This document shows, one piece after another, positions 39,201 to 63,219 of a stretch of DNA of 64,000 bases. The translations under genes were made by a program, and so were the position numbers. The DNA is taken from contig CAYVVI010000001.1 of the NCBI GenBank assembly GCA_964455265.1, positions 4,593 through 68,592 on the forward strand, given 5' to 3'. The notes below the pieces were generated by a model. It saw only the letters and a program-made list of their open reading frames with translations. It ran no database searches and was not told where the DNA came from. How positions within the stretch are numbered: position 1 is the stretch's first letter; each line of letters begins with the position of its first letter. Source of the stretch: an uncultured Flavobacteriales bacterium. GTDB taxonomy: Bacteria > Bacteroidota > Bacteroidia > Flavobacteriales_D > Parvicellaceae.

Positions 39201-39246
39201 ATAGTAATAACAAAACAATTAATAACAACTAAAAAAACAAAAAATT

Positions 39247-39675: not shown

Positions 39676-39677
39676 TA

Positions 39678-40121: not shown

Positions 40122-40123
40122 TT

Positions 40124-40974: not shown

Positions 40975-40976
40975 TT

Positions 40977-42725: not shown

Positions 42726-42736
42726 AGTTAAAAACC

Positions 42737-43015
42737 ATGCCAGCAGCAGCAAGATTAGGAGATACAACAAATCATGGAGGTACAATTACAGGGCCAGGCG
42801 AAGCAACCGTATTGATTGGCGGAGCTCCTGCAGCAGTTGTTTCTGATATGCATTTGTGCGCATTACCTCCAAATACACATCCATTAACCTCTAGTCCTTT
42901 TCCAACAGGAAGTACAAAGGTTTTAATTGGAGGAAAACCGGCAATACGGGTTGGCGATGCTTGTGTGTGTGGTGCATCAGCGGTTGTGGGAGAACCTACA
43001 GTAATGATTGGATAA
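42737..43015 (+). CDS. PAAR-domain spike tip protein
   Basis: AARLGDTTNHGGTITGPGEATVLIGGAPAA ... VLIGGKPAIRVGD, the typical PAAR repeats. Confidence 0.9.
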   Translation: MPAAARLGDTTNHGGTITGPGEATVLIGGAPAAVVSDMHLCALPPNTHPLTSSPFPTGSTKVLIGGKPAIRVGDACVCGASAVVGEPTVMIG

Positions 43016-43028
43016 AAAACAAAGAGTT

Positions 43029-43442
43029 ATGGCAGAAAAAAGAAAAACATTTTTAGGAACGGGATGGGGCTTCCCACCCACATTTGACAGACACAACAAA
43101 AGTGTAGAAATGGTTTCTAATGAGGATGATATTTATCAAAGTCTTGAAATTTTGCTTTCTACTGGACTAGGAGAAAGAGTTATGCAGCCAGAATATGGTA
43201 GCGATCTTTCTAAATTAATTTTTGAACCTATTGATGTAACGTTTGAGTCATTGATAAAAGACCGTATTTCGGATGCCATATTGTATCATGAACCAAGAAT
43301 TACGGTAGATAACATTGAATTAGAAAGAAAAGAAACCGAAGGACTAATTAATATAAGTATTGATTTTACAGTAAGAACAACAAACTCAAGAAGCAATATT
43401 GTATTTCCTTTTTATTTAAACGAAGCAACAAACATTATATAG
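43029..43442 (+). CDS. baseplate wedge protein gp25/GPW-like (Afp9-like)
   Basis: FLGTGWGFPPTFD...LSTGLGERVMQPEYGSDLSKLIFEP, the gp25 lysozyme-like fold signature. ATG 43029 is preferred to the TTG at 43008. Confidence 0.85.
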   Translation: MAEKRKTFLGTGWGFPPTFDRHNKSVEMVSNEDDIYQSLEILLSTGLGERVMQPEYGSDLSKLIFEPIDVTFESLIKDRISDAILYHEPRITVDNIELERKETEGLINISIDFTVRTTNSRSNIVFPFYLNEATNII

Positions 43443-43449
43443 TTTAGTT

Positions 43450-46400
43450 ATGGCAAATCCATGTTCAATATATAAAAATCCAATCCGTAGAGATGGAACA
43501 AGTCAAAATCAACGCTTATTAGCCACGTTTGATACAAACTATGCACTAATTGATGAGCGAAACATATTTGACATTTTAAATTATGCATACCGATATGCAC
43601 AGTACATTAAATATTATAACAACAATAATGAAAGTAATGACTGGAATTGGCAACCTTTTTTCGATAATGACTTTGTAAAACTTTCGTTTTTATTAGGTAG
43701 AAATAATATTAATGCAGAATATAAAAAATTAAAAGACCAACTAACGAGTTCTTCAGCGGTAGAAGACCTAAGAGAATTGGTAGATTTTGTTCTTTTATTA
43801 TTGAATGATTTTGATAAACTTCAAAATAATTCTGTAATTGGCAGTGAAAAGAACAATGCAGTTAAAGGCACAATAAAGGCATCTTTAGCCAATTTACTAA
43901 AAACGCTCATAGCATACGAAAAGGGTGCTGAATTTGTTTTCAACTCATCACCTAATGAATATGAAGTAAATAAACAATTATATTATACCCTTAGCTTTGA
44001 TTGGATAACCGATTCTCCTGCTATATCATGGGATGATTATATTGACAATATCGCAAAGGATGAAACAATCTTTAGCGGTTCTACTATTAATAAAAGCACA
44101 ATAAATGCTTTAGATGCCCTTATAAATGGAGGTTTCCTATTAGTTATTTTACCTTTTCTACAAGAAATAGAAGAGCAGTTTGATATTGAAGCGTCTGTAA
44201 AAGACAAACAAAATGTAGAACCATATTTTGCACTATTTCTATCTTTTTTGCAAATATTTAAACATGCGCAAAATCATATAAATACGTTTACTAAAAAACA
44301 CCTAGATTTTTATTATAGAGAGGTTTTGCAATTGGAACAAAAACCAGCTAACCCCGATACAGCACATATACTTTTTGAACTTGCTAAAGGAATTAACCAA
44401 CATCTTATAGAAGAAGGCACTTTACTAAATGCAGGTAAGGATGAATTGGGACAAGATGTGCTATTTAAAACAGATAAAGAAATAGTGGTGAATACCACAA
44501 AAGTTGCATCGCTTAAAACGGTGACGCTAAATAATAATCGAATTTATAGAACAGAAGTGGCCAATTCGTCTGATGGATTGGGTAGTGATGTAGATGCCTC
44601 TCCATGGAAGTTGTTTGGAGAAAGCGGCAAAAACGAAACGGAAATTGGTTTTGCTATAGCTTCTCCACAATTGCTAATGCGTGAAGGAACAAGGACGGCT
44701 ACCATAAGCATAACTTGTAATCAAACTATACCATCCGTTTCTTCAGATAAATTTAGCATACTATTAAGTGGTGAAGAAAATTGGATAAGTCCTGCTTCAC
44801 TACCATCTATTACTCGCTCTGGAAATACTATTACATTTGAGATAATCTTAGATAGAGATAAGCCAGCAGTGGTTCCTTATAATTCTGAAATTTTAGGCGG
44901 AAATTTTACTACAAAATGGCCTATTGTAAAAATACTTATAAAAGAATCAAGTACTATATATAATAGTTTTAAAACACTTAAATTAAATTCGTTTTCTATT
45001 AATGTCGATGTAAAAGAGGTTACTAATCTAATAGTACAAAACGATGAGGGGCAATTAGATCCTTCAAAGCCGTTTTTCCCTTTTACCAATAACCCAAAAA
45101 AAAATTCAGCATTTTATATTGGTAGTGCAGAAATTTTTAGAAAAAAACTAACCAGTCTTGATGTTAATATTGTTTGGCAAGGGGCTCCCACAGAGAGAAC
45201 TTCTACGGAAGACAATTTTAGATTACATTACAAAGAGTATAAAAGGGGAAGCGCACAAATAGTTTCGGGTAATCATTATTTTACAGCAAGAGCATCTCTT
45301 TTGGATGATTACAAGTGGATAGATCTTTCAACAACAGTCCCTATTAATTATAATGCAAATATTTTATCTGCTGAGGCGGTATCTGTTTCGCAAGGAGTAT
45401 CGGGAGTCTCCAATGTTATTTTACTTTTAATAGGATTGTTCTTAATGTTTATAGATCAGTTTAGAATTATAGATGGTCTTGCACTAGCTGCTACTTATGC
45501 TTTTTTCTATGGTCGGGCTGTAAATAAAAAATTACCCTTATTCGTGCACAATAAAACAAATGACTCTAGTATAATTTTAACTCCTGAAGGAAATATTGAA
45601 GGTCAAACTTTTGGAGATGCTACTGTACCAAGAAAAATACTAGTGAAGAACGCAGCGGCTGACGACTTAACTTTTAGTAAAGTAACAGGTTATAATAGGG
45701 ACATTACTTCAACAGAACTTTCGCCTTATAGTGCTTCGACCAAGCGAGGTTTTATTAAATTTGAATTAGACAACGACTTTCTACATAATTTATATCCAAA
45801 CCTTCTGACTAATACTGTGATATTAAAAGGGCAGTCCAACGATCCAGACTCCATTACTTTACCCAAGCAACCCTATACGCCCATTATAAAAGCGCTGTCT
45901 TTAGATTATACCTCTAGTCATACAGTAGAATTTGCTTCACAAACATTTGGTGATAGAGTGGAGCAGGTTTTCCATATAGGGCCTTTTGGCGAGACGGAAA
46001 TTTTTCATGAGAATTCAAATAATAAAATTAATGAGCCCAATGTTCTTAACACTCCATTCATCTTCCCTCAATTTGATGAACTAGGTTCTTTATACATTGG
46101 CTTAAGCGGTTTAAATGCACCTCAAAACCTTTCCCTCTTGTTCCAGTTTGCAGAAGGTACCGAAAACCCAGATGCAAGGGCTCCGAGGGTAATATGGAGT
46201 TATTTATCCAATAATCAATGGAAGCAATTTGAAAATGCAGCCATTGACGATGCCACACAGGGTTTGCTTACAAAAGGCATCGTAACGCTATCTATACCCA
46301 AAGATATTACACCCAATAATACTTACTTACCTAATGAATTATACTGGATAAAGGCATCCGCATTAAGAGAGTCTCAAATGCATAGTATTAATGCATTTAG

Positions 46401-47229
46401 TGATGTTTTAACTGTCAAGTCACAGGCGATAACCGCTTCTTTTTCTGATAATGAAAACGATTCAAACAGGTTACTTGATCCATTGCCTTCAGAAACTATT
46501 TCAAAGCTTCAAGAAAGAAGGTCTTCGGTAAAAACAGTTACTCAGCCATATCCGTCTTTCAATGGTAAAATAAGTGAAACGGGTATAAGTTTTTATAGAA
46601 GAGTTAGTGAGCGTTTAAGACACAAACACAGAGCGTTAACTATTCACGATATTGAACACCTAATTTTAGAACGCTATCCAGATATTTTTAAGGTAAAGTG
46701 CATTAATCATTTTAAAGACATAGACAATACTAAACATGCTGAATTAGCGCCAGGTAATTTATGTGTAGCATTAATTCCTAATGTAAAGCAATACACTAAT
46801 GCGCAAAACCCTTTTGAATTAAAATTAAGCCCAGCTAAAAGACAAGAAATTAAAACCTATTTAGAAAGCATAGCAACTCCTCTTGCAAACATTGAGGTTA
46901 GAAATCCTGATTATGATGCAATAGAAGTTACTGCTAAAGTAACATTTAGAAAAGGTTTTGATGAAACGTTCTATTCAAAGCAGCTTAGTCAAGATATAAA
47001 ACGATTTATTGCTCCATGGAGTTTTGGAGAGATTGAAAAAATAGCATTTGGAGGAAAATTGGATTCATCTGTGTTGGTTAATTTCATTGAGGAATTAAGC
47101 TATGTAAATTATATTACAAGTTTTACTATGAAACAATCATCTGCTATAGTACAGGAGGCAAATGCTATAAATCCTACAACCATCTTAACATCCAGTAATA
47201 CACATAAAATAAATGAAATTACAAGCTAA
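43450..47229 (+). CDS. large baseplate protein (gp6 / baseplate-J-like; Afp11-like)
   Basis: 1259 aa. The call rests on its size and its position after the gp25-like gene in the conserved eCIS gene order. No short motif is diagnostic by eye. Confidence 0.6.
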   Translation: MANPCSIYKNPIRRDGTSQNQRLLATFDTNYALIDERNIFDILNYAYRYAQYIKYYNNNNESNDWNWQPFFDNDFVKLSFLLGRNNINAEYKKLKDQLTSSSAVEDLRELVDFVLLLLNDFDKLQNNSVIGSEKNNAVKGTIKASLANLLKTLIAYEKGAEFVFNSSPNEYEVNKQLYYTLSFDWITDSPAISWDDYIDNIAKDETIFSGSTINKSTINALDALINGGFLLVILPFLQEIEEQFDIEASVKDKQNVEPYFALFLSFLQIFKHAQNHINTFTKKHLDFYYREVLQLEQKPANPDTAHILFELAKGINQHLIEEGTLLNAGKDELGQDVLFKTDKEIVVNTTKVASLKTVTLNNNRIYRTEVANSSDGLGSDVDASPWKLFGESGKNETEIGFAIASPQLLMREGTRTATISITCNQTIPSVSSDKFSILLSGEENWISPASLPSITRSGNTITFEIILDRDKPAVVPYNSEILGGNFTTKWPIVKILIKESSTIYNSFKTLKLNSFSINVDVKEVTNLIVQNDEGQLDPSKPFFPFTNNPKKNSAFYIGSAEIFRKKLTSLDVNIVWQGAPTERTSTEDNFRLHYKEYKRGSAQIVSGNHYFTARASLLDDYKWIDLSTTVPINYNANILSAEAVSVSQGVSGVSNVILLLIGLFLMFIDQFRIIDGLALAATYAFFYGRAVNKKLPLFVHNKTNDSSIILTPEGNIEGQTFGDATVPRKILVKNAAADDLTFSKVTGYNRDITSTELSPYSASTKRGFIKFELDNDFLHNLYPNLLTNTVILKGQSNDPDSITLPKQPYTPIIKALSLDYTSSHTVEFASQTFGDRVEQVFHIGPFGETEIFHENSNNKINEPNVLNTPFIFPQFDELGSLYIGLSGLNAPQNLSLLFQFAEGTENPDARAPRVIWSYLSNNQWKQFENAAIDDATQGLLTKGIVTLSIPKDITPNNTYLPNELYWIKASALRESQMHSINAFSDVLTVKSQAITASFSDNENDSNRLLDPLPSETISKLQERRSSVKTVTQPYPSFNGKISETGISFYRRVSERLRHKHRALTIHDIEHLILERYPDIFKVKCINHFKDIDNTKHAELAPGNLCVALIPNVKQYTNAQNPFELKLSPAKRQEIKTYLESIATPLANIEVRNPDYDAIEVTAKVTFRKGFDETFYSKQLSQDIKRFIAPWSFGEIEKIAFGGKLDSSVLVNFIEELSYVNYITSFTMKQSSAIVQEANAINPTTILTSSNTHKINEITS

Positions 47230-50200
47230 TGGAAGAGATACTTACAATAAACAAAAACAGAACACTTCTTCCTTCAGAAGATTATGAGCTTCTTAGAGAG
47301 GAAGGGCTGACACATATACAAAACCTAGCTGGAAAAGTATGGACAGACTATAATACGCATGATCCGGGTATTACGCTGTTAGAGTTGTTAAGTTATGCTA
47401 TTACAGATTTAGGATACAGAACAAGTAGAGATGTTAAAGATTTGATACAAGAAGAGGTTACCACGCCTCTAGCGTCCGATAGCTTTCATACCGCATTAAA
47501 TATTTTAACAACAAATCCTGTAAGTAGTATAGACATCCGTAAAATTTTAATAGACCGTGTACCTAGACTAAGAAATGCATGGATATTAAAATCAAAAAAA
47601 ACAGAAGTTTCTTATGGTCTAGATTATGCTAATAGTCAATTAATTTCAGGAAGTACTATAGAATCATTAAATGGTCTATATAAAATAATTTTAGAACCTA
47701 GAGCTAATGTAATAGATGTTGATAGTCTGGCTGATGAAGTTAAAGCCATATTGCATCAGTACAGAGGTCTATGTGAAGATTTTTTCGAAATAATAGTGAG
47801 TGAGAAAGAAGAAGTCTTTATAGAATCATCTATTGAAATTGAAAAAGAAGCGGATCCCGAAGCTGTTTTGGCAGAAATATATTTTCGCATAGGAAAACTC
47901 ATTGCTCCTACTGTTAAGTTTTACTCTTTTGATGAAATGAAGAAAAGGGGCAACACTACAGAAGATATTTTTGAAGGTCCCATTTTACAAAATGGGTTTA
48001 TTGATACAAATGAATTATCTCAAATAGAACCAAAAGTGGAGATATACACTTCTGATATTATTAATGAAATAATGGATATAGAAGGAGTGCTTGAGGTAAA
48101 CAATATAGATGTGTTTAGTTTTGTTGATAGTCGAGTTCCTAAAATTTCTGATGCGGATGCGAATAGTGAAGGATGGATTTTGACTTTAAGAAAAAACATA
48201 ACTAATGATTCAGAAAATTACAACCCTGTTTTTAGTAACCTGCTAGAAGAGAATCATACAAAAATTCTTTTATATAAAGGGACTTCTCCAATAAAAGAAG
48301 AGGACATAGACGAAGGTACTGTTATTAAAAGATTTGAGAATCTTCTTTTATCAGACCAAAAAACAGCAGGAGTAAATGATTTAGAAATTCCTGAAGGAAG
48401 ATTTGAAAACATACAAGAATACTCTGCCATCCAAGATGAATTACCACTTTCTTACGGAACAGGACAATTTGGTTTGCCTGAAAGCGCTTCTCCGAAAAGA
48501 AAAGGACAAGCCAAGCAACTTAAAGCATATCTGATTTTCTTTGAACAATTATTAGCAAATTACTTATCTCAGCTTGAAAATTCAAAAGATTTGCTTTCAT
48601 GGAAAACCCTAGATAAGACCTACTACTCACAAAAAATAAACGATGCTATTAAAGATGGGGATGATTTGCTTGATGGTGATTTAACCGAAACCAAACTAGA
48701 CGATTTGGCGGAAAATGAACTTACATTTTTCGACAGACGAAATCGTTTTCTAGAACATCAAATAGCCCGGTTTAATGAGGAAATGGTAGAGTACAGCATT
48801 ATGATGTATGGAATTTTATCCTTTCAGGAAGCCAATACAGACCTAATAGAAGACCGCACCAAATTCTTAGAAGAATATCCCATTCTCAGTGCCGACAGAG
48901 GTAAAGGATTCAATTATAAAAATGATGGTAACGTTTGGAATACAGATAACGTGCCTGGTTATCAAAAACGCGTAGCAAGATTATTAGGTATAGATGACTA
49001 CGATAGGAGGTTTTTAAATGTAGTGGATTTGACAGAATATCCAGAATTACCAGAAGAGACAGAAGTTGCAACAGAATTATCGGAAGGATTACATGTACTT
49101 GAACACATTTTATTCAGACCAAAGGTTACAGCAGATGCTTTCTTAAAAGTTAATTTAGGTTCTGACAAGCCCAATACGTGCTCTTTTGATGAAGATCCTT
49201 ATTCGTTTAGAATGACGGTTATTTTACCTGCGTTTTTATTAGATGAAAACAATAATAAGATAGGACGCGCTACTGAATTTAATTTCAGAAAACATGCCGA
49301 AAAAATAATGCGTATGGAAGCTCCAGCGCATATTGCCGTTGACATTATATGGGTTGACCCAACAAGTGTTGAATTTGCTCTATTTGAAAATTGCTATAAG
49401 GCATGGCTTATGGAAAATGCAAAAGCCAGCCCTAACCAAACAATACTAACAGAAAAGTTGAATTGTTTACTTGGCAATCTCAATCAGCTTGAAGACGTTT
49501 ATGAAGCGTTTTATACTGTCAATACTCCAAGAAATGAGGATACCTATACAACTAAACATGAAATTTTAGCAACTGTATTTGATCCTGTTGCTCCTATTGT
49601 AGAGGCACGAATAGAAAAAATTGAAAACATTGAAAATAGGGTTGGCAGTAATCCTTCAACAATAAGAGACATGCCTCTGCATTTTGTCGGAAATGATAAT
49701 ACAGTACTAGACAACCCTAAATCAGGTCTTAATTATAGCTCTACAAATCCTTTGATTCGCTTTTTGAACTATAAACCAGCGGGCTATACAGATATATCAG
49801 GACCGGGTATAGATCCAAGGGTAAATGATGTAGGAACATTTTCAATTTTAGATGAAACGATACAAAACAAAGCCGGGAAATGGCGTTTAGATATTATCAC
49901 CACAAATGAACTTGGTGGGCAAACACTTCATAAAATAATCATAGAAATTATTGATGACCATGAAGCCGTTTATGTTGTAGAAGATCCTTTTAATGAAGAT
50001 ACTTATGAAAAATGGGATATACTGGCCCGTGTAAGTGATAACGATGATGAGGATGCACAGAAAATAATTAGTGCTATTATTGAAGGAATTACCCCATCAA
50101 ATTCGGCAGGAAGTTCTAACCCAACAGACCCAACATACTTAAAAGAAACTATAGGCATTGTTATCTCGAAAGGAGTTAGTCCCATAGTTAGGGATATATA

Positions 50201-51086
50201 CGATATAAGTGGCTCTGATATTCTTGTTGATACTACAGATAATTTAAACGTAGGCGATATAGTAGTTTTGGATGAAACTAAACTTAAAAACTTTCCAAAA
50301 TCTTCTGGTCACTATACTTTTAGTCTTCAAATAAAAACAGTAGATGAAGATGGAGGTATTACTAATCATAGTAATGCAAATAACAAACAAGTACTTATTA
50401 AAATTCTTGCAGATATTGAAGCTGTTTACACGGTAACCCCTGCTAAGTCTGTATATGCCTATACTCAAGGTGAGATACTTGCAACAGTAAGCGATGGAAA
50501 TGGAAATGTAAACTCTGCACAACAAATCGGTGGTAGTCTTCCGCCTAGCACAACTTTAAATCTAAATAATGGAACAATAGCAATTAGTAATAGAGATGCA
50601 TTTATAGAAGGTGTAAATTCAGATTTAGGTTATCCAGCAGAATTTAGTAAATATATCAATTGTGATTATAAAGATGCTGCACCTCTCTCAAGCGTATCGT
50701 ATACATCAACCATTAAAACGGTTGATAATACAGGCGGAATTACGGTGCAAGATGTTACTATAACCATTAATAGAGACGAACCAGCTGTTTATACTTTCAG
50801 CAACAAAGCAATTATATCCTCAGATAGAATTATTATTTATGAGGGAGAATTTGAACAAGGTGAAGTGATAGCCACAGTTAAAGACCCAGATGGCCCTAGC
50901 CCAAATAATCCTGTTAATTCGGCCATACGTTGCGGCAATTTTATAGATGGTGCCGTTCTTAATCCTAATAACGGAGCTATTACTGTAAGTCTTACACGAA
51001 TTATACTTGCAGATACTACAGCGGTGTTAAACGAAGACACCAATACACAAACATCAACTCCTAATAGTACTAATCAAGTTAACTAA
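47229..51086 (+). CDS. large baseplate protein (gp7 / Afp12-like) with C-terminal Ig/cadherin-like repeats
   Basis: 1285 aa. Its start overlaps the previous stop (ATAATGG). The C-terminal 520 aa or so contain about four copies of the (E/P)A(V/F)YTV...LATVSD..G...SA...G.LP...LN..NG.I.. repeat also found in 57206-61084. Confidence 0.6.
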   Translation: MEEILTINKNRTLLPSEDYELLREEGLTHIQNLAGKVWTDYNTHDPGITLLELLSYAITDLGYRTSRDVKDLIQEEVTTPLASDSFHTALNILTTNPVSSIDIRKILIDRVPRLRNAWILKSKKTEVSYGLDYANSQLISGSTIESLNGLYKIILEPRANVIDVDSLADEVKAILHQYRGLCEDFFEIIVSEKEEVFIESSIEIEKEADPEAVLAEIYFRIGKLIAPTVKFYSFDEMKKRGNTTEDIFEGPILQNGFIDTNELSQIEPKVEIYTSDIINEIMDIEGVLEVNNIDVFSFVDSRVPKISDADANSEGWILTLRKNITNDSENYNPVFSNLLEENHTKILLYKGTSPIKEEDIDEGTVIKRFENLLLSDQKTAGVNDLEIPEGRFENIQEYSAIQDELPLSYGTGQFGLPESASPKRKGQAKQLKAYLIFFEQLLANYLSQLENSKDLLSWKTLDKTYYSQKINDAIKDGDDLLDGDLTETKLDDLAENELTFFDRRNRFLEHQIARFNEEMVEYSIMMYGILSFQEANTDLIEDRTKFLEEYPILSADRGKGFNYKNDGNVWNTDNVPGYQKRVARLLGIDDYDRRFLNVVDLTEYPELPEETEVATELSEGLHVLEHILFRPKVTADAFLKVNLGSDKPNTCSFDEDPYSFRMTVILPAFLLDENNNKIGRATEFNFRKHAEKIMRMEAPAHIAVDIIWVDPTSVEFALFENCYKAWLMENAKASPNQTILTEKLNCLLGNLNQLEDVYEAFYTVNTPRNEDTYTTKHEILATVFDPVAPIVEARIEKIENIENRVGSNPSTIRDMPLHFVGNDNTVLDNPKSGLNYSSTNPLIRFLNYKPAGYTDISGPGIDPRVNDVGTFSILDETIQNKAGKWRLDIITTNELGGQTLHKIIIEIIDDHEAVYVVEDPFNEDTYEKWDILARVSDNDDEDAQKIISAIIEGITPSNSAGSSNPTDPTYLKETIGIVISKGVSPIVRDIYDISGSDILVDTTDNLNVGDIVVLDETKLKNFPKSSGHYTFSLQIKTVDEDGGITNHSNANNKQVLIKILADIEAVYTVTPAKSVYAYTQGEILATVSDGNGNVNSAQQIGGSLPPSTTLNLNNGTIAISNRDAFIEGVNSDLGYPAEFSKYINCDYKDAAPLSSVSYTSTIKTVDNTGGITVQDVTITINRDEPAVYTFSNKAIISSDRIIIYEGEFEQGEVIATVKDPDGPSPNNPVNSAIRCGNFIDGAVLNPNNGAITVSLTRIILADTTAVLNEDTNTQTSTPNSTNQVN

Positions 51087-51094: not shown

Positions 51095-51499
51095 ATGGCA
51101 CAAGAGACAAGATACACAAGCGAAGCAACAGCAACAGCAGAAGGGACAACAAGAGATGCTGGAGGAACTACTACGGTAACAAAAATAGATACTACTCGTC
51201 CTATTTATCAAGAACCTATCAGAGAAGTTCCTGTAAAACCTATATCACCAGTTACTCCTCCAACAACTGGACTTAAGGCCGGTGTTTATGATTTTGTAAT
51301 TACTACGGTAGATCAATTTGGGGGACCAACTTATCATAAGTTTAAAGTAGAAGTGAGACCAGGAAAAAGAGGGAGTACAACACCAAATGTTCAACAAGAG
51401 TTTGCTTTTACGGAGCAAAACTTTGATAAATATACTGAAATATACCAACCCACTTTAGATAATTCTACCCTTGAAAGACAAACAATAAAGTTAGCGTAA
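51095..51499 (+). CDS. small Thr/Pro-rich protein ending in a partial Ig-like repeat
   Basis: 134 aa with a T/P-rich N-terminal half. The segment GVYDFVITTVDQFGGPTYHKFKVEV matches the distal part of the Ig-like repeat. Confidence 0.5.
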   Translation: MAQETRYTSEATATAEGTTRDAGGTTTVTKIDTTRPIYQEPIREVPVKPISPVTPPTTGLKAGVYDFVITTVDQFGGPTYHKFKVEVRPGKRGSTTPNVQQEFAFTEQNFDKYTEIYQPTLDNSTLERQTIKLA

Positions 51500-51521: not shown

Positions 51522-52661
51522 ATGCGCGAACGCCTACATAGACCCATAAGACAAGAAGAACCCGCTATAAGAAGCGAGAACGATAATGCTATGCAGGCAA
51601 ACGAAACGGAATCAACGCAATCCGATTTAAATTCGTCTAACGATTACAGCCTTCTTGATGCCTTCCCTAACGGGGTATTTGGAGATAGAAATAAAGTCGA
51701 TAATATCTTTACGCAACTTAGAGGACATACCATTAACCCCGATGACTTCCCTAATGGAATGCTTGGAGGCAACAATGTGGATACACCTAAGCAAGAAGAA
51801 GATTTAGCTGAAAATAAAAACACTCATCACCAAGAAGTAGCACAAAATAAAGATGCTTTACTCAGCAGTACAATTCCACCGCACAATTTAAAAGTACAAA
51901 AACACACCATACAACAGGGCGAAACCCTTACATCTATAGCCAAAAAATATGGAGTTAGTGTGCAAAGCTTGGCTAAATGGAACAACATTGCTGATATAAA
52001 CAAAATTATAGCAGGTGATAGCTTAATTGTTTCTGACCCTAACCGACCTACCGATTGGGCTAAATTTACGGTCTACCCTACCGTTAAAGAATCATCTGGG
52101 TGGCTATTTGGTGCTGAGGGTACGCAATCCATCAGTGTAACAAGTGGTATAGAACTGGCCTCGGCATCTATTTTAAATTACGATGTTGTATATTTAAAGG
52201 GTAATTTGCTTGACCAAATAAAAAAAGACCCTGATATGCTAGCTAAAGAAAATATCCTAATTAATAAATTAAAAAATGACCTTCGGTTTGGTAAGGAAAG
52301 TTTCTACTATACAAACCAATTTGGTGTTGAGTTTGGTGGCAAACGTTGGTCTGCACCCAACGAAGAATGGAGTTCTACAGATGCTAACAACCCCTTGCTG
52401 CATAAAGAAACGCTTAACGTAGCCACGAATGAGTTAACTTGGGTACTGCGCCATGCAACCGTAAAATATTGGGCAGAAGTGAGTGCCGATGGCAGTATTA
52501 CAATTCAGTATAGACTATGGGATAGACTGGACTTGAGTGGCTCTAAAGGCCGCTCAGAAGCTTACAACACCATATCCGATGTGTTGGGCTTTATGTATCA
52601 CGATATGGCAGGAGGAAATATAAACCTACAAACCCGAGCAGAATGGAGCGTAAGCAAATAA
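51522..52661 (+). CDS. leader-bearing cargo candidate: leader + LysM + unknown C-terminal domain
   Basis: Has the long-form leader. The LysM domain is HTIQQGETLTSIAKKYGVSVQSLAKWNNIADINKIIAGDSLIV. The C-terminal domain of about 200 aa was not recognised. Confidence 0.7.
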   Translation: MRERLHRPIRQEEPAIRSENDNAMQANETESTQSDLNSSNDYSLLDAFPNGVFGDRNKVDNIFTQLRGHTINPDDFPNGMLGGNNVDTPKQEEDLAENKNTHHQEVAQNKDALLSSTIPPHNLKVQKHTIQQGETLTSIAKKYGVSVQSLAKWNNIADINKIIAGDSLIVSDPNRPTDWAKFTVYPTVKESSGWLFGAEGTQSISVTSGIELASASILNYDVVYLKGNLLDQIKKDPDMLAKENILINKLKNDLRFGKESFYYTNQFGVEFGGKRWSAPNEEWSSTDANNPLLHKETLNVATNELTWVLRHATVKYWAEVSADGSITIQYRLWDRLDLSGSKGRSEAYNTISDVLGFMYHDMAGGNINLQTRAEWSVSK

Positions 52662-53500
52662 TACACTATGGTAGGCTACTGCTAATGGCAGTAGCTTTAC
52701 AAGCATGTTTTAACAATAACGACAAAAAGATGAATTCCAGAAACAATACTAATGAGTTTAATAAAAAAGGATTTTACACAACATTTTCAAAGGACTGGGA
52801 CTTGGATATTATACCACTGATTGAACCATTTCGTTTAGAATCAACAGATCGTGGACAATCTTGGTATTTAGTCCATGACAGTTTAATTTCTTACTCAACT
52901 GAGCATGGAAAAGGAATTGAAAATGTGAAAAGGTTTGGAATTTCGAAAAATTATTTCTTTGGAAAAGATGAAAATAGCTGGTTTTTCTATGATACAAAGT
53001 CAAGTCTATATGCAAGTTATAAAAGTGAAGAAGAACTTATTAAATGCCTTAATTCATTTAATATTCCTGTTACAATAATTAAAAGTTGTAAAGAGTACCA
53101 AGAAGACATCAGCAAAAGTGGAAAATGCTATTGGTTTCCAAATCAAGGACAAAGATACAATGAAGAACATGAACTTAACCCCAAGAATATTGTTAATCTT
53201 AATGCTTTTGGTGATGATATTACAAACGCAGGATTTAATTCTCCATCCTCAATAAAGAAGCAAAGTAACAATATTTATTTTTTTAGATTAAGTATAGATA
53301 ATAAAGAAAACGACCTCCTGTATTTTGGCATAAACTGGAAATCTTTCATTCTAATTAGGGACGGTATTATTGTTCCAGTTTTTATTGACTCAGATAACTT
53401 CAATATCACTTTATATACTCCGTTTCCCATAGCCCAAAAAAAGGGAATTGCTGAGAATAAACGAATTTACATAGTAAAAATGATAACGATAAAAGAATAA
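52643..53500 (+). CDS. lipoprotein (candidate immunity protein, paralog 1)
   Basis: Signal/lipobox LLLMAVALQAC. It overlaps the stop of the upstream cargo gene by 19 nt. Confidence 0.6.
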   Translation: MERKQIIHYGRLLLMAVALQACFNNNDKKMNSRNNTNEFNKKGFYTTFSKDWDLDIIPLIEPFRLESTDRGQSWYLVHDSLISYSTEHGKGIENVKRFGISKNYFFGKDENSWFFYDTKSSLYASYKSEEELIKCLNSFNIPVTIIKSCKEYQEDISKSGKCYWFPNQGQRYNEEHELNPKNIVNLNAFGDDITNAGFNSPSSIKKQSNNIYFFRLSIDNKENDLLYFGINWKSFILIRDGIIVPVFIDSDNFNITLYTPFPIAQKKGIAENKRIYIVKMITIKE

Positions 53501-53520: not shown

Positions 53521-53555
53521 AATTTGACGAAAAAAGAACTTTACCTTGGTTAAAG
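53521..53555 (+). pseudogene. remnant of the 3' end of a lipoprotein-immunity paralog
   Basis: AATTTGACGAAAAAAGAACTTTACCTTGGTTAAAG matches the 3' end of 53591-54112 (CAATTTGACGAAAAAAGAACTTTGCCTTGGCTAAAA, encoding FDEKRTLPWLK) but has no ORF body upstream of it. Confidence 0.55.
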
Positions 53556-53590
53556 TAAAGCGTGCTATATTATTTATAAACTCGAGCAGA

Positions 53591-54112
53591 ATGGACAATA
53601 AACAAATAATATATTATGGCAAGCTACTGCTATTGGCAGTAGCTTTACAAGCATGTTTTAACAATAACAACAAAAAGATGAACACACAAAACAATGTAGA
53701 TGAATTTTATATTTACACACGCTATGAAGACCTCTACAGACTTCCTTTAATAAAACCATTGGAATTAACTTCTGTAGGAGGAGAAGGATATGGATGGACG
53801 CTAAAATTTCCTTATCAAAAAATTGACGATAATGTAGAAACAGGAATATTGGACAAGATTGCTGTTGAAGACTCGCTTATTATTGTCTATATAGAAAGAA
53901 CTTATTTGTATCATAATATGACCGAAGCTTGGTTTACTATAGACCTAAAAGAAAAAAAGGAATATGCCTTTACAAAAGAAGCAGATTACAATGCGTTTTT
54001 GAAAGCGAAACACATAGATAGCGTTACGTTCTACTCTCCCGATGAACTTTTTAAACAATTTGACGAAAAAAGAACTTTGCCTTGGCTAAAACAACCTTAT
54101 AAACCTGAGTAG
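53591..54112 (+). CDS. lipoprotein (candidate immunity protein, paralog 2)
   Basis: The internal ATG at 53591 gives MDNKQIIYYGKLLLLAVALQAC. The first 100 nt or so, plus 8 nt upstream, duplicate the start of 52643-53500. Confidence 0.6.
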   Translation: MDNKQIIYYGKLLLLAVALQACFNNNNKKMNTQNNVDEFYIYTRYEDLYRLPLIKPLELTSVGGEGYGWTLKFPYQKIDDNVETGILDKIAVEDSLIIVYIERTYLYHNMTEAWFTIDLKEKKEYAFTKEADYNAFLKAKHIDSVTFYSPDELFKQFDEKRTLPWLKQPYKPE

Positions 54113-54147: not shown

Positions 54148-54840
54148 ATGCGCGAATACCTACATAGACCAAAAAGACAAGAAGAACCCGCTAGAAGAAG
54201 CGAGAACGATAATGCTATGCAGGAAAACGATTTAATCTCACGCTTCCCTAATGGAATATTTGGGGACAATAATGTAGATACACCTAAACAAGAAGATTCT
54301 TTTACAACGGATAAAACTGAAACAATTGAAAGTGAAAAAAAATCTGTAAATGACTTAACCACTAGCGAAAAAGGAGTTGACTTTATTAAGAGTTTTGAAG
54401 GGAAAAGATTAGAGCTTTATAATGATGATGCAGGATATGCTACCATTGGATATGGACACCTTGTTCACTACGGAAAAGTCGGGACAAATACAGAGAAAGA
54501 AAAGGAGTTTAAATCTGGTATTACAGATGAAAAAGCAATAGAGCTACTAAAACAAGATGTAAAAGACAAAGGTGAAAAATATGTTAAATCATATGTTTCA
54601 GTAAAATTGACACAGGAACAGTTTGATGCGCTAGTGTCATTTACGTTCAATGTTGGTAGTGGAAATTTTAAAAGCTCTAGTTTGTTAAAGGAAGTAAATA
54701 AAGAGACAGCAACTTTAGAAACGATTAAAGAAAAATTTATGTTGTGGAATAAAGCAGGAGGGAAAGAACTTTCTGGTTTAACAAAGCGAAGAGAAAGAGA
54801 AGCTAAAATCTATAATGAAGGTATATATGAAAACAATTAA
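54148..54840 (+). CDS. leader-bearing cargo candidate: short leader + GH24 (T4-type) lysozyme
   Basis: Has the short-form leader (MREYLHRPKRQEEPARRSENDNAMQENDLISRFPNGIFGDNNVDTPKQE). The lysozyme signature is FIKSFEGKRLELYNDDAGYATIGYGH. Confidence 0.85.
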   Translation: MREYLHRPKRQEEPARRSENDNAMQENDLISRFPNGIFGDNNVDTPKQEDSFTTDKTETIESEKKSVNDLTTSEKGVDFIKSFEGKRLELYNDDAGYATIGYGHLVHYGKVGTNTEKEKEFKSGITDEKAIELLKQDVKDKGEKYVKSYVSVKLTQEQFDALVSFTFNVGSGNFKSSSLLKEVNKETATLETIKEKFMLWNKAGGKELSGLTKRREREAKIYNEGIYENN

Positions 54841-55291
54841 TTCTATAAAAAAAATAGTGTATCTACTACTCCCATTTGTTTCTTGGTCTTGTGTAGAAAT
54901 TAAAGATAATCAAAGCCCTAGTAAATATATTATGAAGGAGTGGCAAATTTCTGATTATAAATTTTCAGGAATTTCCGCTTTAACAACAGAAGAAGCTGAT
55001 AAATACATTGGGCAGAAAATTAAATTAGATAGCAACTATGTTATTTACTTTAACGATAGCATTAGCTATCCTAAATATGAATTTAAAAGAGTAGAGTCCA
55101 ATTCATTTTTCCATGAAGGATACAAAACCAATAAAGATGTTTTTTCAGTTAATGTGGACAGTCTTTTGGTTTTTGATATTATTTGTGAAAATGAAGGCTA
55201 TTATAATATTGTTTTTGTAGAAGAACAAAACATTCTGATTCAGAATATAGATGGTGTGTTTTTTATTTTAACCCCCTTAATAAAAAAATAG
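54815..55291 (+). CDS. lipoprotein (candidate lysozyme immunity protein)
   Basis: Signal/lipobox IVYLLLPFVSWSC. It overlaps the end of the lysozyme gene. The alternative start is ATG 54827. Confidence 0.6.
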   Translation: MKVYMKTINSIKKIVYLLLPFVSWSCVEIKDNQSPSKYIMKEWQISDYKFSGISALTTEEADKYIGQKIKLDSNYVIYFNDSISYPKYEFKRVESNSFFHEGYKTNKDVFSVNVDSLLVFDIICENEGYYNIVFVEEQNILIQNIDGVFFILTPLIKK

Positions 55292-55349
55292 CGTAATAAG
55301 AAAAGACAAACAATAAAGTTAGCGTAAAAACCATTAAATTTACTTTACC

Positions 55350-56288
55350 ATGCGCGAACGCCTACATAGACCCATAAGACAAGAAGAACCCGCTATAAGA
55401 AGCGAGAACGATAATGCTATGCAGGAAAACGATTTAATCTCACGCTTCCCTAATGGAATATTTGGGAACAATGATGTAGATACACCTAAGCAACAAGAAG
55501 AGCTAGCTGAAACTAGTGATACAAAAACCGCAAACGCTCCCCAACAAAAAAAAGAAGTAGAAAAACAAATAAAGCCTAGAGATAAGTATGAGGAAGCAAT
55601 CTTAAAAGATAAAATTGTTTATACTAAAAACTATGGTTGGATTGATAAAACACATGCTTTCCCTATTGATAAAAAAACTCCAACAGGAGCTAAAAAATTA
55701 TGGAATACAATAGAAAAGGAACTAGGGATTAAATCAAATTCACCAGGAGATAATAATGGATTTAGAGTTGCTTATAGACAAGATGCAAAGGTTGCAAGTT
55801 TTTTACCTAGAATAGGAGTAACAAAAGAATATTTTGTTAAATATAATCTAACAACTAAACAGAAAGAAAGTGTTGCATTATCAATATTTCAAGAAGTTTC
55901 TAAAGAATTTGAAGAATTTCAAGGATGGGCTTTTTGGAGTGGGTCATCCTTCGAGCCAGCTGACCTACCCTCAAATATGCTCAGCTTCTATTCTGCGATA
56001 AGACCTAGACTTACGGAAGAAAAAATTATGTTACTAGTAGAACCCTTAACAAAAGAGCAATCTATAGAGGTTTACAGAGAGTATCCAGGAACATTTACAG
56101 ATAGTAAGCACAAAAATAAAACATTTACCCCAAAATTCTTTCCAAATAAATATAGCCCTAAAAATCCTGTTGTTCCAAAAGAGTTACAGGAGGTAATTCC
56201 AGCAACAAAAGGCACTAATTTTAGAGACTGGCTTCCTTTACTTGACATTCATGGAGGTGTTCCCCCAATAACAGGTCCAAAATATTGA
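55350..56288 (+). CDS. leader-bearing cargo candidate: short leader + unknown C-terminal domain
   Basis: Has the short-form leader. The 124 bp spanning 46 nt upstream of the ATG and the first 26 codons duplicate 51474-51597. The C-terminal domain of about 230 aa was not recognised. Confidence 0.65.
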   Translation: MRERLHRPIRQEEPAIRSENDNAMQENDLISRFPNGIFGNNDVDTPKQQEELAETSDTKTANAPQQKKEVEKQIKPRDKYEEAILKDKIVYTKNYGWIDKTHAFPIDKKTPTGAKKLWNTIEKELGIKSNSPGDNNGFRVAYRQDAKVASFLPRIGVTKEYFVKYNLTTKQKESVALSIFQEVSKEFEEFQGWAFWSGSSFEPADLPSNMLSFYSAIRPRLTEEKIMLLVEPLTKEQSIEVYREYPGTFTDSKHKNKTFTPKFFPNKYSPKNPVVPKELQEVIPATKGTNFRDWLPLLDIHGGVPPITGPKY

Positions 56289-56722
56289 TGAAAATATCTT
56301 TTATATATCGAAACTCCTGGAAAATATCTATTGTGATTATATATTTTCTGATATTCATTATGAAACAACTAGGAATAAATATCGGTTATAATCAGTATCT
56401 CATTGATTACATATCCTCTAGTAGCGGATATAATTCTAAAACAAGAGACATTGTGCTTTTTGCTAACCTAGCATTTCTTTCAACTATTACTGTGATTACT
56501 TTTACAATATTGAAGAGAATAAAAAGTCTGCTCCTTTCTTTATTTTTATTGTTATTAATTCATTTTTTTCTTTTTAGCTTCTTAATTGATGTTATTGAAA
56601 AAACTAGAAATTATGAATATAATTCAGATAGCGGAGCGATTTGGATAGTTGTGTACCCAATTACTGTTTGTGTATTGCTTTTAATAGCAGCATTGTTAGA
56701 CTATATTAAAAATAAGAAATGA
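56285..56722 (+). CDS. polytopic membrane protein (candidate immunity protein)
   Basis: 145 aa with 4 TM helices. It overlaps the upstream stop by 4 nt. Confidence 0.55.
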   Translation: MMKISFIYRNSWKISIVIIYFLIFIMKQLGINIGYNQYLIDYISSSSGYNSKTRDIVLFANLAFLSTITVITFTILKRIKSLLLSLFLLLLIHFFLFSFLIDVIEKTRNYEYNSDSGAIWIVVYPITVCVLLLIAALLDYIKNKK

Positions 56723-57180
56723 AAAACACAATTATCTACTATATATCTGGCTGTTTGATATTTCCATTAGAGATTTATTCTTCAATGAAAGCTGAGTTCA
56801 CTTTAAGTGAAAACATAAGTCTGTACTTTATATTGCTATCAGTGTTTTCGACAATCATTTATTTTGTTTGTGTTATAAGAAAAAAAAATAACTCAGCAGC
56901 AGCAATATTGTGTATTAGTTTTTTACTTGTTATTCCTTTTAACTTATTTTTAGCAGATAAACTTTATAGGTTAAAGAATGATGCTGATAATAAAATAGCA
57001 TGGATATATCAGCAAAAAAAAATAACTGGTGAATATCCAAATAAATTGATAGAACCATTTGATAAAAAATTCTATTATAAAAAAAACACAGAGGGTTTCG
57101 AATTATCGTTTACTGTTTTTATAGACCAAACAAGATATTATTACTCCTCCGAGGAGGGATGGATTTATTACTCTGATTAA
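56719..57180 (+). CDS. membrane protein with C-terminal soluble domain (candidate immunity/accessory)
   Basis: 153 aa with 3 TM helices. It overlaps the upstream stop by 4 nt. Confidence 0.5.
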   Translation: MKNTIIYYISGCLIFPLEIYSSMKAEFTLSENISLYFILLSVFSTIIYFVCVIRKKNNSAAAILCISFLLVIPFNLFLADKLYRLKNDADNKIAWIYQQKKITGEYPNKLIEPFDKKFYYKKNTEGFELSFTVFIDQTRYYYSSEEGWIYYSD

Positions 57181-57205: not shown

Positions 57206-60200
57206 ATGATAGTTTACAACGTATTTGCCGACAAAGTATTAGATTCTATTAAAGTTCTTTTTTTAGAAATAAAAGAAGAATTGCTAAATGAGGACACCCT
57301 AACTCTGTATAAAAATGGACAAAAAGACGAATTCATTAAAGAACAGTTTACTCCATTACTTGAGGACGTTTCTTCCAAACTAAAAGAGCAGTATGCTATT
57401 GCAACTTCGCTTAACGATAATAACGATGATGTATGGAACAGCGTATATTTCTTCTCTGATATGTATTATGAATTGGTAACAGGAGTTATCAAATTAATTT
57501 CTATAAGAAATGAAGACATTGATGGTAGTATACCCTTGTTAGAAACATTAGCAACCATTAGACAGCAACTAGATCAAAATAGAAATGTAGAAGCCCTTTC
57601 TGTAGTAAGAGATTATATAAAAAACAGACCTGCTACTTATTCCGACAAACCCTTTTTTCAAAGCCAAATAAATGCACTTCTAAATTCTCGTCAAGGTATT
57701 TATTTAGTAATTCCTCCAAAAACTTTACAAGAATATTCTAATGGTACCTTATTGGCGTATGTTGATGGTTTAAGTATTGAGAGTGCAAGCACAACAACAT
57801 TACCTCCAGGCACAGAACTTGATCAGGTTACGGGTGAATTGAAGGTCTCAGACACATCTCAACTTGTGTCGGGGCTATACATTTTAGGTATTAGCACTAC
57901 CATTGAAAACAGTATAGAATCTTCAGAAACGCTTTTCTTACAAATAGGTCAGGAAATAACGGCAACTTATACCGTTGCAGAAGCAAAAAACAAATCAGAA
58001 TATGAAGACAATTTTGAATTGGCAACCGTTGCTACTATTGATGGGGCAGCAATTACAGAAGCGTTTTTAATCAATAGCGTACTTCCATTAGGAATGGATA
58101 TAAACCCTCAAACTGGTGAAATATTTGTTTTTAACAAAGAAAATCTATCAGAAGGTACTTACATTTTTGAAGTAAGAACAGTAGATTCTCTTAGCAGAAT
58201 TATTGACCATACAATTACCATTATTATTCTTTCAGACAAAATCACAAGCTATGTTATTAACCCTACAAAATCGATTGAAGATTATAGCATTGGTGATGTG
58301 TTGGCAGAACCACTAGACAAAGACGTTGTATATACAAGTATAGAAGTAAGAGGATTGCCTAATGGAATTGGTATTAACACAACAACTGGAGATATATTTG
58401 TTGAAGACGAAAGTTTAATAAAACCCGGTACTTATGAGGTGTCTATTAAAACCATAGAAGATAACGGGCTTGAAAATCTTACACAAATAACGATAGTAAT
58501 AGGAGAGCTTGCCGATACCGAAGCGATATATACTGTTAACCCTCCAAAAGCGACATTATCTGACTATAAAAATTTTGATGTGTTAGCATTCGCATCAGAC
58601 AATAATGGAAATATAGTTCAAGCAAGTTTTATTAAAGGAGCTCTCCCTCCTGGAACATCTTTAAATAAATTTACAGGTGAAATTATTGTTACAGAGTCTG
58701 ATAATCTAATTAGCGGAAAATATACATTTACCATTTCTACAGTTGATTCTCGTGGTGGATATAGTGAAACAACCCTTACTATTCCTATAAGCACGGAAGT
58801 TCGTTATAAAATTTCAAGAGCAAGAATAGTTGATGATTATTCTATAAATGAACTTGTTGCCATTGCTTTTGATCCTATTGCGCCCATAGTGTCTGCAGCT
58901 GTTGTAAGTGGAACATTACCTTCGGGCTTAGAACTGCTTGATAATGGAAATATTAGAGTGAGTGACGATAGTTTGTTGCAAGCTGGAACGTACACATTTA
59001 CGGTAGAAACAACGAATGATAATGATGATACTTCATCACACGAAATTACACTCTCATTTTTAGAAGACCAAGAAGCCGAGTACATAATAAAATCTCCAAG
59101 AATTGTTGACACATATGTAGATGGAGAAATTCTAGCAGAAGCCATAGATGCTGATGGAAAAATTATTGAAGCGAAAATATTGAAAGGAAACTTACCAGGA
59201 GGGGTTGAACTTAATGCCGATAATGGAAATATATATGTGAAAAACGCACAAGAACTTTCTGCAGGGTCTTTTACGAATATACAAATTGAAACCAAGGATA
59301 GTAGAGGGGGAAGAACACAACATAATATCACCTTAGAAATATTTCCAGATATTGAGGCGGTATATGTGGTTTTACCGCCTTTGGCCATAAACCAGTACGT
59401 TAACGGACAAAATTTAGCATTGGTAACAGATGGAAATGCACCCATAGTATCAGCAAAAATAATTACAGGGAGTTTGCCTACGGGAGTTGCTATGGACACA
59501 TCTACAGGTATTATAAGTGTTATAAATGCTGCTAAATTAAGGGCAGGCACTTATCCATTAACTATTGAAACTAAAGATGAGTTAGGCGGAATATCGCAAA
59601 ACTCCATTCAATTAATTTTAAATCCCGTAGATCAAGAAGCTTTTTATGTTATTGCTCCTGCAAAGAATATTGATAGTTATATCAATGGTTTTGTTTTGGC
59701 CTCTCCAGTTGATCCAGATGGACAAGTGGTTAGTGCCGTAATTATTAGCGGAGTTTTGCCTTCAGGAACATCTCTAAATTCAATATCTGGCGTTATAGCA
59801 GTAACCGATATTAATGCTCTTATGCCTGGAACGTATATTGTTGGTATAATTACAACCGATGAGAATAGTCAGACAACAACGCATTCTGTACAACTTACAA
59901 TCAATCCTGATAACGAAGCAGACTATACTCTACTTCCACAAAAAAAATATGACTTGTATGATGACGGAGAATATATTGCTACTGTTACAGATGCAGATGG
60001 AGACATAGAATCAGCAGAATTATTAAGTGGGGTTTTACCTAGCGGCATCACTTTAATTACAGATGCTGAAATGGGTGCAGATGTGGCTTCTGACCTTAAT
60101 TTATCTGACCCAATACCAGTTGGATATATTTTAGTTACAAATAAAACAGTTTTGCAATCGTCAAATGTTGTTGTAAGTATAAAAACAGTTGATATTACTG

Positions 60201-62588: not shown

Positions 62589-62592
62589 GAAG

Positions 62593-63081
62593 ATGAATAC
62601 AATAAAATTACTGTTATTCGGAAGAGCCAACAAAATAATGGAGTTAGATATTAACACAGGGAAAATAAAATTTACCGATGTATATTCCAGTGAAGAAGAA
62701 GAGTTGGAATATCACACTAAATCTTTCAAAGAAAATAAAGAAAATAAGTTCAAAAGTACAAATGGTTTTTACTCCATAGGGGTAAATGGCGATTATCTCG
62801 GTTTTTATATTGATATTGAAAATAATAACCCAAAAATATTATACCAAAATACGACAATTGACTTTTTAGATGGAGAATTTAAATGTTATCAACTTAACGA
62901 AAAAGAAGGGGTATTTGAATGTGTTAGACCCTACAACTTTAAGTGGGTATATGAGTCATTTTTTCGTGGCCCATTCGATGATGCAGATGAAGATGTCAAT
63001 TTTGGATTATGGATAATGTTGCTTTACAAAGATAAAGATATACTGGCGAGGGTCATAAAGCATCATAGTCGAAAGCTTTGA
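62593..63081 (+). CDS. small cytosolic protein (candidate immunity protein)
   Basis: 162 aa from ATG 62593, 2 nt after the upstream stop. No signal peptide. Confidence 0.5.
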   Translation: MNTIKLLLFGRANKIMELDINTGKIKFTDVYSSEEEELEYHTKSFKENKENKFKSTNGFYSIGVNGDYLGFYIDIENNNPKILYQNTTIDFLDGEFKCYQLNEKEGVFECVRPYNFKWVYESFFRGPFDDADEDVNFGLWIMLLYKDKDILARVIKHHSRKL

Positions 63082-63104
63082 TTATTACAATAAAAACAAA
63101 AAAT

Positions 63105-63212: not shown

Positions 63213-63219
63213 TATATCA

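Follow-up and report, generated by a model that had tools for sequence, protein, structure and literature searches.

Toxins carried by extracellular contractile injection systems (eCIS) have been shown to enter the particle by way of their N-termini. In the Photorhabdus virulence cassettes (PVC), an N-terminal signal of 50 aa and Pvc15 direct loading (PMC9054023), and in the antifeeding prophage (Afp) 20 aa of Afp18 act as the signal and the cargo has been seen in the tube lumen (bioRxiv 10.1101/2023.11.13.566157). In the AlgoCIS of Algoriphagus machipongonensis, cargo cannot do without the disordered N-terminal domain seen in Cgo1/2; loading needs Alg15 together with its ATP hydrolysis, and the same study found the N-terminal domains to be similar within a system, not between systems (bioRxiv 10.64898/2026.05.27.728243). 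In PVC and AlgoCIS, the N-terminal signals are both necessary and sufficient for loading, which depends on the AAA+ ATPase of the eCIS (PMC9054023; bioRxiv 10.64898/2026.05.27.728243). Moreover, eCIS-linked antibacterial toxins and toxin-immunity pairs have previously been reported (PMC8213781), such pairs being uncommon beside eCIS operons according to Geller et al. 2021 (PMC8213781).

The object of the present work is a 64,000-nt stretch of DNA (hereafter the window, with positions counted from its first letter) from an uncultured Flavobacteriales bacterium of the Parvicellaceae (assembly GCA_964455265.1, contig CAYVVI010000001.1, positions 4,593 to 68,592). It holds an eCIS locus and seven open reading frames (ORFs), here called cargos A to G, which open with one common N-terminal leader; an eighth mini-ORF, H, retains just the first 13 codons of it. 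We regard the leader as a system-specific, disordered cargo-loading sequence of this eCIS, a reading to which we give a probability of about two in three. An earlier, sequence-only reading of the same DNA had proposed a new cargo-loading tag, that is, an eCIS packaging signal perhaps read by the AAA+ ATPase of the locus. The context fits this proposal (an eCIS locus, an orthologous ATPase, disorder, and a toxin domain in cargo D which is fused elsewhere to DUF4157 or RHS), but the claim to novelty was overstated: the sequence family is new, while the kind of signal is known, having been shown experimentally for PVC, Afp and AlgoCIS in 2022-2026.

The locus resembles that of AlgoCIS in being a Bacteroidota-type eCIS with a cluster-encoded, non-structural AAA+ protein, effectors with variable C-termini and a disordered N-terminal domain which is common to the cargos of one system and unlike those of other systems, the comparison with Cgo1/2 being made by description. 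However, Cgo1 and Cgo2 carry DUF4157 after the N-terminal domain, whereas DUF4157 was not found anywhere in the window; AlgoCIS has two cargos, whereas there are seven here, each readable one paired with an immunity-like gene; and the leader described here is strongly conserved, with a repeated FPNGxFG motif. With the N50 signals of PVC (Pdp1, Pnf) and the NT20 of Afp18 the leader shares its N-terminal position, a hydrophilic composition without hydrophobic core, its occurrence on unrelated toxins beside an eCIS and an AAA+ gene in the locus. Those signals are of 20-50 aa, follow no consensus and tolerate point mutations, and the toxins that bear them act on insect cells and come without immunity genes, whereas the leader copies are 54-97 aa long, 41-85% identical as proteins and contain invariant residues. 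DUF4157 (PF13699, 'eCIS_core'; PMC8213781, PMC11297309) occupies the same place, N-terminal to variable toxins beside the eCIS AAA+ gene, but it is a folded HExxH domain, while the leader lacks both HExxH and a predicted fold and matches nothing in Pfam. Finally, the modules of polymorphic toxins and of type VI secretion system (T6SS) effectors (MIX, RIX, PAAR, RHS, LXG; PMC3482391, PMC10673891) are similar in the constant N-terminus, the variable toxin, the downstream immunity gene, the orphan cassettes and the recombination scars, but they are folded and belong to secretion machines of other kinds, and none of them was detected in the leader.

Copies and properties of the leader

A tblastn search of the whole window with leader B as query recovered the seven leaders and the H remnant, all eight of which the sequence-only reading had listed, and beyond them nothing above noise. 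Every copy (8/8) stands at the start of its ORF, and all of them lie within 24.7-64 kb, inside or beside the eCIS gene set, with none in positions 1-24 kb. Three forms can be distinguished. The long form, of 94-97 aa, is found in B (97 aa, 51522-51812, + strand, E 3e-65; gene 51522-52661), E (97 aa, 61104-61394, + strand, E 5e-56; gene 61104-62588), F (97 aa, 63220-63510, + strand, E 7e-55; gene from 63220 to past the end of the window) and A (94 aa, 26248-26529, - strand, E 6e-52; gene 25348-26529). The short form, of 54 aa, is found in D (55350-55511, + strand, E 1e-19; gene 55350-56288) and C (54148-54309, + strand, match 54148-54306, E 3e-16; gene 54148-54840), and it equals the long form minus 15 and 28 codons, both deletions being in frame; the length of about 95 aa first ascribed to all seven leaders thus holds for A, B, E and F, and not for C and D. 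The third form is that of leader G (34248-34520, - strand, match 34508-34293, E 1e-30; gene 31335-34520), which is long, with a diverged junction and diverged N-terminal 25 aa around a conserved middle. The start of G, earlier placed at 34550, is most likely the GTG at 34520 (MFASKQHKPDK...), since the TTG at 34550 falls in the promoter or operator region and from 34520 the protein aligns with the others over the full length. The remnant H (24843-24881, - strand, match 24881-24813, E 0.002) belongs to the mini-ORF 24744-24881.

At the DNA level the leader copies are 83-93% identical. In windows of 30 nt, 66-100% of positions agree between the ATG and about +300 nt; on either side the identity drops to about 16-36%, a random level, so the module is sharp-edged. 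The columns invariant in all seven leaders are P14, Q25 and F48-P49-N50-G51-x-F53-G54, and FPNGxFG is the sole multi-residue motif that is invariant throughout; it occurs twice in A, B, E, F and in the conserved middle of G, and once in C and D. A further motif at the junction with the cargo, N(N/D/G)VDTPKQ, is kept in 6/7 copies and is missing from G. The module had been said to end at DTPKQEE: the regions downstream are indeed unrelated, save that A, D and E remain alike for some 20 further linker residues (ETSDTKT..A.QQKK..EKQ).

The leader is very hydrophilic and is predicted to be intrinsically disordered. Its mean Kyte-Doolittle hydropathy is -1.05 to -1.56 in the seven copies, the values of the first 35 aa add up to -51 to -76, the net charge is -3 to -10, and the Uversky plot classes 7/7 leaders as disordered. 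AlphaFold2 gave for the leader alone (seven-sequence alignment) a predicted local distance difference test score (pLDDT) of 54, a predicted template modelling score (pTM) of 0.13 and no secondary structure at all. The model of full-length D serves as an internal control, with residues 1-64 mostly below a pLDDT of 50 and the toxin domain above 90 over most of its length; as the leader alignments were shallow in both runs, these models are supportive, not decisive.

As the sequence-only reading had held, the leader is neither a Sec or lipoprotein signal nor a DUF4157 domain. The h-region of such a signal was not found in any leader by Kyte-Doolittle analysis, the most hydrophobic 15-aa window averaging at most +0.47; PF13699 gave no Pfam match, an ad hoc profile of three DUF4157 cargos found nothing in the whole window, and HExxH occurs in none of the seven leader proteins. 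Nor was a known enzymatic or secretion domain matched: the leader has no Pfam match even at E <= 10 and no NCBIfam match in the leader region, with no MIX, RIX, PAAR or other delivery domain detected (Pfam). A C-terminal domain of the Por_Secre_tail type, which would mark the type IX secretion system (T9SS), had no Pfam match in A-G, the C-terminus of F lying outside the window.

By the Nei-Gojobori method, 20/21 pairs of leader copies have a dN/dS of 0.26-0.71, and among A-F, the six close copies, dS amounts to 0.2-0.6. Because dN/dS is below 1 in these pairs and all indels preserve the frame, the leader peptide, and not its DNA alone, is judged to be under moderate constraint. Antisense ORFs which appear inside the leader copies are explained by the repeated DNA, and the sense-frame dN/dS below 1 argues against them.

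Outside the window, a word-index search of 5.8 billion clusters returned no relative of the leader. A profile built from the seven leaders was searched against 1.84 billion representative proteins. Its true matches were limited to B, E, D and C, all from the same contig, while the four non-self matches were tandem-repeat proteins and were rejected as false positives. Furthermore, no relative outside the contig was found in GTDB species genomes, metagenome contigs or viral contigs, and a six-frame search of 22 fetched loci with the profile gave nothing; far from being common in genomes without CIS genes, the leader was found nowhere outside its own contig. The search of representatives missed A, F and G, so that its leader counts are lower bounds. 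Cargo A (25348-26529) turned out to be filed in a 90%-identity cluster under an unrelated 53-aa GC-rich representative, and further leader copies elsewhere in the same genome could be hidden in the same way. To judge from these searches the leader is apparently an orphan sequence family, confined to one lineage. The N-termini of the ORFs in 16 related eCIS loci were also compared all-vs-all; with flanks of ±10 kb that stop short of the cargo regions, this revealed only sheath and tube paralogues and one pair of ~210-aa ORFs in locus L013.

Toxin domains and immunity-like genes

The seven cargos, of 230-1061 aa, are alike in the leader alone, and their downstream domains are mutually unrelated and mostly antibacterial. 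Four assignments of the sequence-only reading were borne out by Pfam: cargo B (51522-52661, + strand) contains LysM (1e-13) and a further domain without assignment, this C-terminal domain having no PDB match; cargo C (54148-54840, + strand) is a Phage_lysozyme of the GH24 phage type (2e-39); cargo E (61104-62588, + strand) contains PG_binding_1 (2e-9) and likewise a further domain without assignment; and cargo F (63220->64000, + strand) is a GH73-type Glucosaminidase (2e-7). Cargo A (25348-26529, - strand), situated directly downstream of the AAA+ gene and equipped with its own operator copy, had been called papain-like, an assignment that was not supported: no Pfam, NCBIfam or PDB sequence match was found downstream of its leader. 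Cargo G (31335-34520, - strand) had been described as an SH3/LysM/nuclease protein. The nuclease part stands: the C-terminus is a PoNe-type nuclease (DNase), residues 928-1056 matching PDB 9waq_B (9e-16), with a PoNi gene downstream; the SH3 part was not confirmed, and for LysM there is just a weak NCBIfam match (0.002).

Cargo D (55350-56288, + strand) carries a widespread polymorphic-toxin domain (55557-56288, residues 70-312), with 52 homologues from other organisms. The closest of these, P0014 (67% identity), has a disordered N-terminus and DUF4157 where D has the leader, and other homologues form the C-termini of RHS proteins or stand behind other N-terminal domains. The AlphaFold2 model of D is confident over residues 70-300 (pLDDT >90 for most), and a Foldseek search of this toxin model against the PDB found no match at E <= 0.001; near-invariant residues of the domain include W97, D99, H102, E124, D145, E188 and D205. 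One more homologue, P0017, has a short unrelated N-terminus and is encoded inside a different phage-tail-like cluster (L018, a GCA_947500545.1 contig, 7619-20900), which includes DUF2586, DUF6046 and a 1144-aa protein and may represent another toxin-carrying tail-like system.

Wherever the end of a cargo gene lies within the window (A-E and G), a small immunity-type gene comes next. Cargo B is followed by two paralogous candidate immunity genes (52643-53500 and 53546-54112, + strand) with signal peptides ending ...LQAC, and cargo C by one (54815-55291, + strand) with a signal peptide ending ...SWSC. After D there are two multi-pass membrane proteins, again candidate immunity proteins (56285-56722 and 56719-57180, + strand), a type of neighbour that hints at an envelope or membrane target of the D toxin. 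The candidate after E (62566-63081, + strand) shows a weak SUKH_6 match (E 0.006), the one after A is a multi-pass membrane protein (24894-25361, - strand), and directly after G there is a PoNi immunity protein (30607-31344, - strand; PoNi_N 6e-17, PoNi_C 4e-33). The locus therefore shows the polymorphic toxin system pattern (PMC3482391), with a constant N-terminus, a variable toxin, a downstream candidate immunity gene and toxin domains shared with other architectures. This toxin-immunity architecture, together with the peptidoglycan-directed domains, points to bacteria as the probable targets of the cargo.

The window also contains a leaderless toxin, Endonuclea_NS_2 (28627-29265, - strand; Pfam 3e-34), followed by a weakly YezG-like immunity gene (28274-28621). 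At 28134-28236 the 5' junction of this toxin gene (29222-29323) recurs with 93-95% identity, and the segment 28134-29323 (- strand) looks like an orphan toxin cassette with its scar. Between this cassette and PoNi, the genes 29389-29805 and 29809-30309 encode a TPR protein and an ORF without Pfam match.

The eCIS locus, its ATPase and a shared candidate operator

Domain matches delimit an eCIS structural operon at 34734-51086 (+ strand), which encodes a Pvc16_N cap, two sheaths, two gp19-type tubes, CIS_tube, a VgrG-like spike, a stand-alone PAAR, gp25 and two baseplate proteins of ~1260-1285 aa. Further along the same strand, a fibre-like protein of 1292 aa with He_PIG/Ig repeats (57206-61084) is the counterpart of the fibre-like gene that comes after the Afp12-like gene in related loci, and cargo cassettes stand on both sides of it. 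The related loci were found by way of their VgrG-like and Afp12-like proteins, at an identity of just 33-45%.

The AAA+ ATPase (26613-27920, - strand; PF00004, 5.7e-29) belongs to the classical unfoldase clade, its best PDB matches being p97/Cdc48-type unfoldases. Its AAA domain shares 61-65% identity, and its N-domain 36-37%, with the ATPases of three related loci (L019, L020 and L022). Because of this identity in the AAA domain, we take it, on comparative grounds, to be the orthologue of the eCIS ATPase at the Afp15/Pvc15/Alg15 position. In the same three loci the gene order is gp25, Afp11-like, Afp12-like, He_PIG, CIS_TMP and AAA, followed by DUF4157 (PF13699) toxins; in a fourth (L021), CIS_TMP comes after He_PIG, and the AAA gene and a DUF4157 toxin are not in the stretch read. 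The gene directly after AAA is thus a DUF4157 toxin in the relatives and cargo A in the window, where the AAA+ gene lies on the opposite side of the cluster relative to those loci.

A 20-nt palindromic motif, ACGGTCATAAAATGACAGTG, is present in five copies in the window, against zero expected by chance. The copies (24459-24478, 26571-26590, 28043-28062 and 34556-34575 on the - strand, 34701-34720 on the + strand) stand upstream of an M15 peptidase gene, cargo A, the AAA+ gene, cargo G and the structural operon, and two of them share a divergent promoter region (34556-34720), one facing G and the other the structural operon. The motif is a candidate operator of an eCIS regulon. Cargo genes B-F have no copy of their own and lie inside the + strand operon. 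Since B-F are part of the operon, and A and G stand behind the same operator as the operon and the ATPase, all seven leader genes would be positioned for expression together with the particle. A scan for promoters and terminators over 51-64 kb gave counts equal to the shuffled expectation.

Several other genes are found near the operator set. A LuxR-type response regulator (16827-17450) and a TPR histidine kinase (14181-15938) are encoded there, and the operator copy farthest to the left precedes the segment 23286-24456 (- strand), with a leaderless PG_binding_1 + Peptidase_M15_4 protein and then a 116-aa protein with a two-pass transmembrane match. The two might form an endolysin/holin-like pair which releases the particles by lysis. 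A patatin-like phospholipase (21515-22525) is situated just past this pair. Finally, positions 1-13000 contain a GmrSD restriction enzyme (9820-11658), a C-5 cytosine methylase (4239-5246), a ParB-like protein (5261-5914) and a resolvase (7941-8585), and because of these mobile-element and defence-type genes in the left part of the window, the eCIS may be located next to or within a genomic island.

A probable loading sequence and its alternatives

The reading of the leader as a loading sequence is favoured by several kinds of observation: one leader is found on unrelated toxins, with homology stopping sharply at the junction; all its known copies are at an eCIS locus and are constrained as peptides; and its hydrophilic, predicted disordered character fits a loading signal. 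The locus, moreover, has an ATPase of the right kind, followed by cargo A in the place where relatives have a DUF4157 toxin; the D toxin homologue P0014, carrying DUF4157 in place of the leader, suggests a module swap; ACGGTCATAAAATGACAGTG, shared by the operon, the ATPase, A and G, is consistent with co-regulation; and the loading signals of PVC, Afp and AlgoCIS provide the precedent. The leader shows every sequence- and context-level feature of the class that was checked, save some published descriptors (aromatic, charge and polar content), which apply in part.

By analogy with those systems, we infer a causal role of the leader in loading, its recognition by the ATPase and a place for the cargo in the lumen. 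The seven leader-toxin fusions would be made along with the particle, and the unstructured leader would act both as recognition element and as initiation region for the AAA+ unfoldase (26613-27920), which would unfold the toxin and thread it into the tube lumen. Contraction would then deliver the toxins, most likely into other bacteria, as the peptidoglycan-targeting domains, a DNase and the immunity-like genes suggest. The conservation of FPNGxFG suggests that it is the recognition motif.

A number of findings weigh against this reading. An aromatic residue within the first 8 aa, part of a published eCIS descriptor (PMC11297309), is found in 3/7 leaders, and the charge over residues 6-21 is -1 to +1, that is about 0, against the slightly positive value of the same source. 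Of the first 20 aa, 50-65% are polar with the residue set of the Afp preprint, against the >60% given there, and 65-75% once N and Q are counted. The pair E-F has a dN/dS of ~1.25, on just 4 synonymous differences. The leader is an orphan family, with no further genome in which to compare its occurrence with that of eCIS; furthermore, it is longer and far more conserved than the PVC and Afp signals, so that its mechanism could differ from theirs. Lastly, no homologue of the tape measure (CIS_TMP) was found in the 64-kb window, so that the machine as read may be incomplete. In 4/4 related loci CIS_TMP comes directly after He_PIG, where the window has cargo cassettes instead; the tape measure may lie beyond position 64000, the source contig being of 75,011 bp. 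Cargo G, with its long helical middle, was considered as a tape measure and rejected, as it has no similarity to the CIS_TMP of the four relatives.

Among the alternatives, the one that survives best, though we consider it unlikely, makes the leader a docking or adaptor module which binds the spike, PAAR, the baseplate or the tape measure, in the manner of the N-terminal delivery domains of the T6SS, and is not read by the ATPase. The VgrG-like spike and the stand-alone PAAR of the locus would offer such partners, the cargo set is similar to T6SS effector-immunity pairs, and the strictly conserved, repeated FPNGxFG has more the look of a binding motif than do signals set by composition only, as in PVC and Afp. 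However, seven cargos of 230-1061 aa are too many for one spike tip, no delivery domain was detected in the leader, and it is predicted to be disordered, with no fold; in the eCIS studied by experiment, moreover, cargo with disordered N-termini is found in the tube lumen (PMC9054023; bioRxiv 10.64898/2026.05.27.728243).

It is quite improbable that the shared 5' block acts mainly at the DNA level, as a product of cassette duplication and gene conversion and a handle for recombination, its peptide having no specific role. Traces of recombination are certainly present. The ~50 nt before the ATG of D (55301-55349) repeat the sequence before the ATG of B, including the last codons and the stop of gene 51095-51499, and the segment directly before leader F (63092-63213) is a remnant, 86% identical, of the 3' end of the immunity-like gene 56285-56722. 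These repeats and the 13-codon remnant H are interpreted as recombination scars, and with the high DNA identity of the block, its sharp edges and the ratio of the pair E-F they speak for the handle. Against it, dN/dS stays below 1 in the other 20 pairs despite the synonymous divergence of the six close copies, reading frame and start codon are kept in 7/7 copies with all indels in frame, and FPNGxFG is invariant even in the diverged G. Besides, a recombining block is compatible with peptide function, such an architecture being the norm for the trafficking domains of polymorphic toxins (PMC3482391).

The weakest alternative, an inhibitory or solubilising pro-peptide cut at the VDTPKQ(E/Q)E junction, or else a tag for release by vesicles or lysis unrelated to the particle, could draw on the conserved junction motif as a processing site and on the leaderless M15 peptidase and small two-pass membrane protein under the same operator as a sign of lysis release, but it is very improbable given that no protease gene was found in the locus, that G lacks the junction motif yet keeps the rest of the leader, that neither a Sec core nor a T9SS C-terminal domain was found, and that the location inside the structural operon argues for a link with the particle.

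Returning to the loading sequence, a more specific form of it can be put forward only tentatively, and we hold it to be less probable than its falsity. In this form the leader would be a sequence-specific loading code, with FPNGxFG read by the divergent N-domain of the AAA+ protein; it would have arisen de novo in one lineage, replacing the usual N-terminal domain and DUF4157, and the seven effector-immunity pairs would serve a free, released particle as weapons against other bacteria.

In PVC and Afp, no consensus marks the signals on the cargo of the eCIS ATPase, and mutations in them are tolerated. The window provides a natural variation series, in which seven leaders have diverged under selection, in long and short forms, with one diverged N-terminus in G and one invariant motif, and this narrows the search for the recognition element; the 54-aa short form is, in addition, a ready-made candidate tag for engineering. 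The case also indicates that eCIS cargo can be recognised without DUF4157, through N-termini common to the genes around a cluster, and that such leaders can be lineage-specific orphans which are missed by profile searches across genomes. For the biology of the group, the locus represents an unusually rich case of an eCIS with antibacterial-looking cargo and immunity-like genes.

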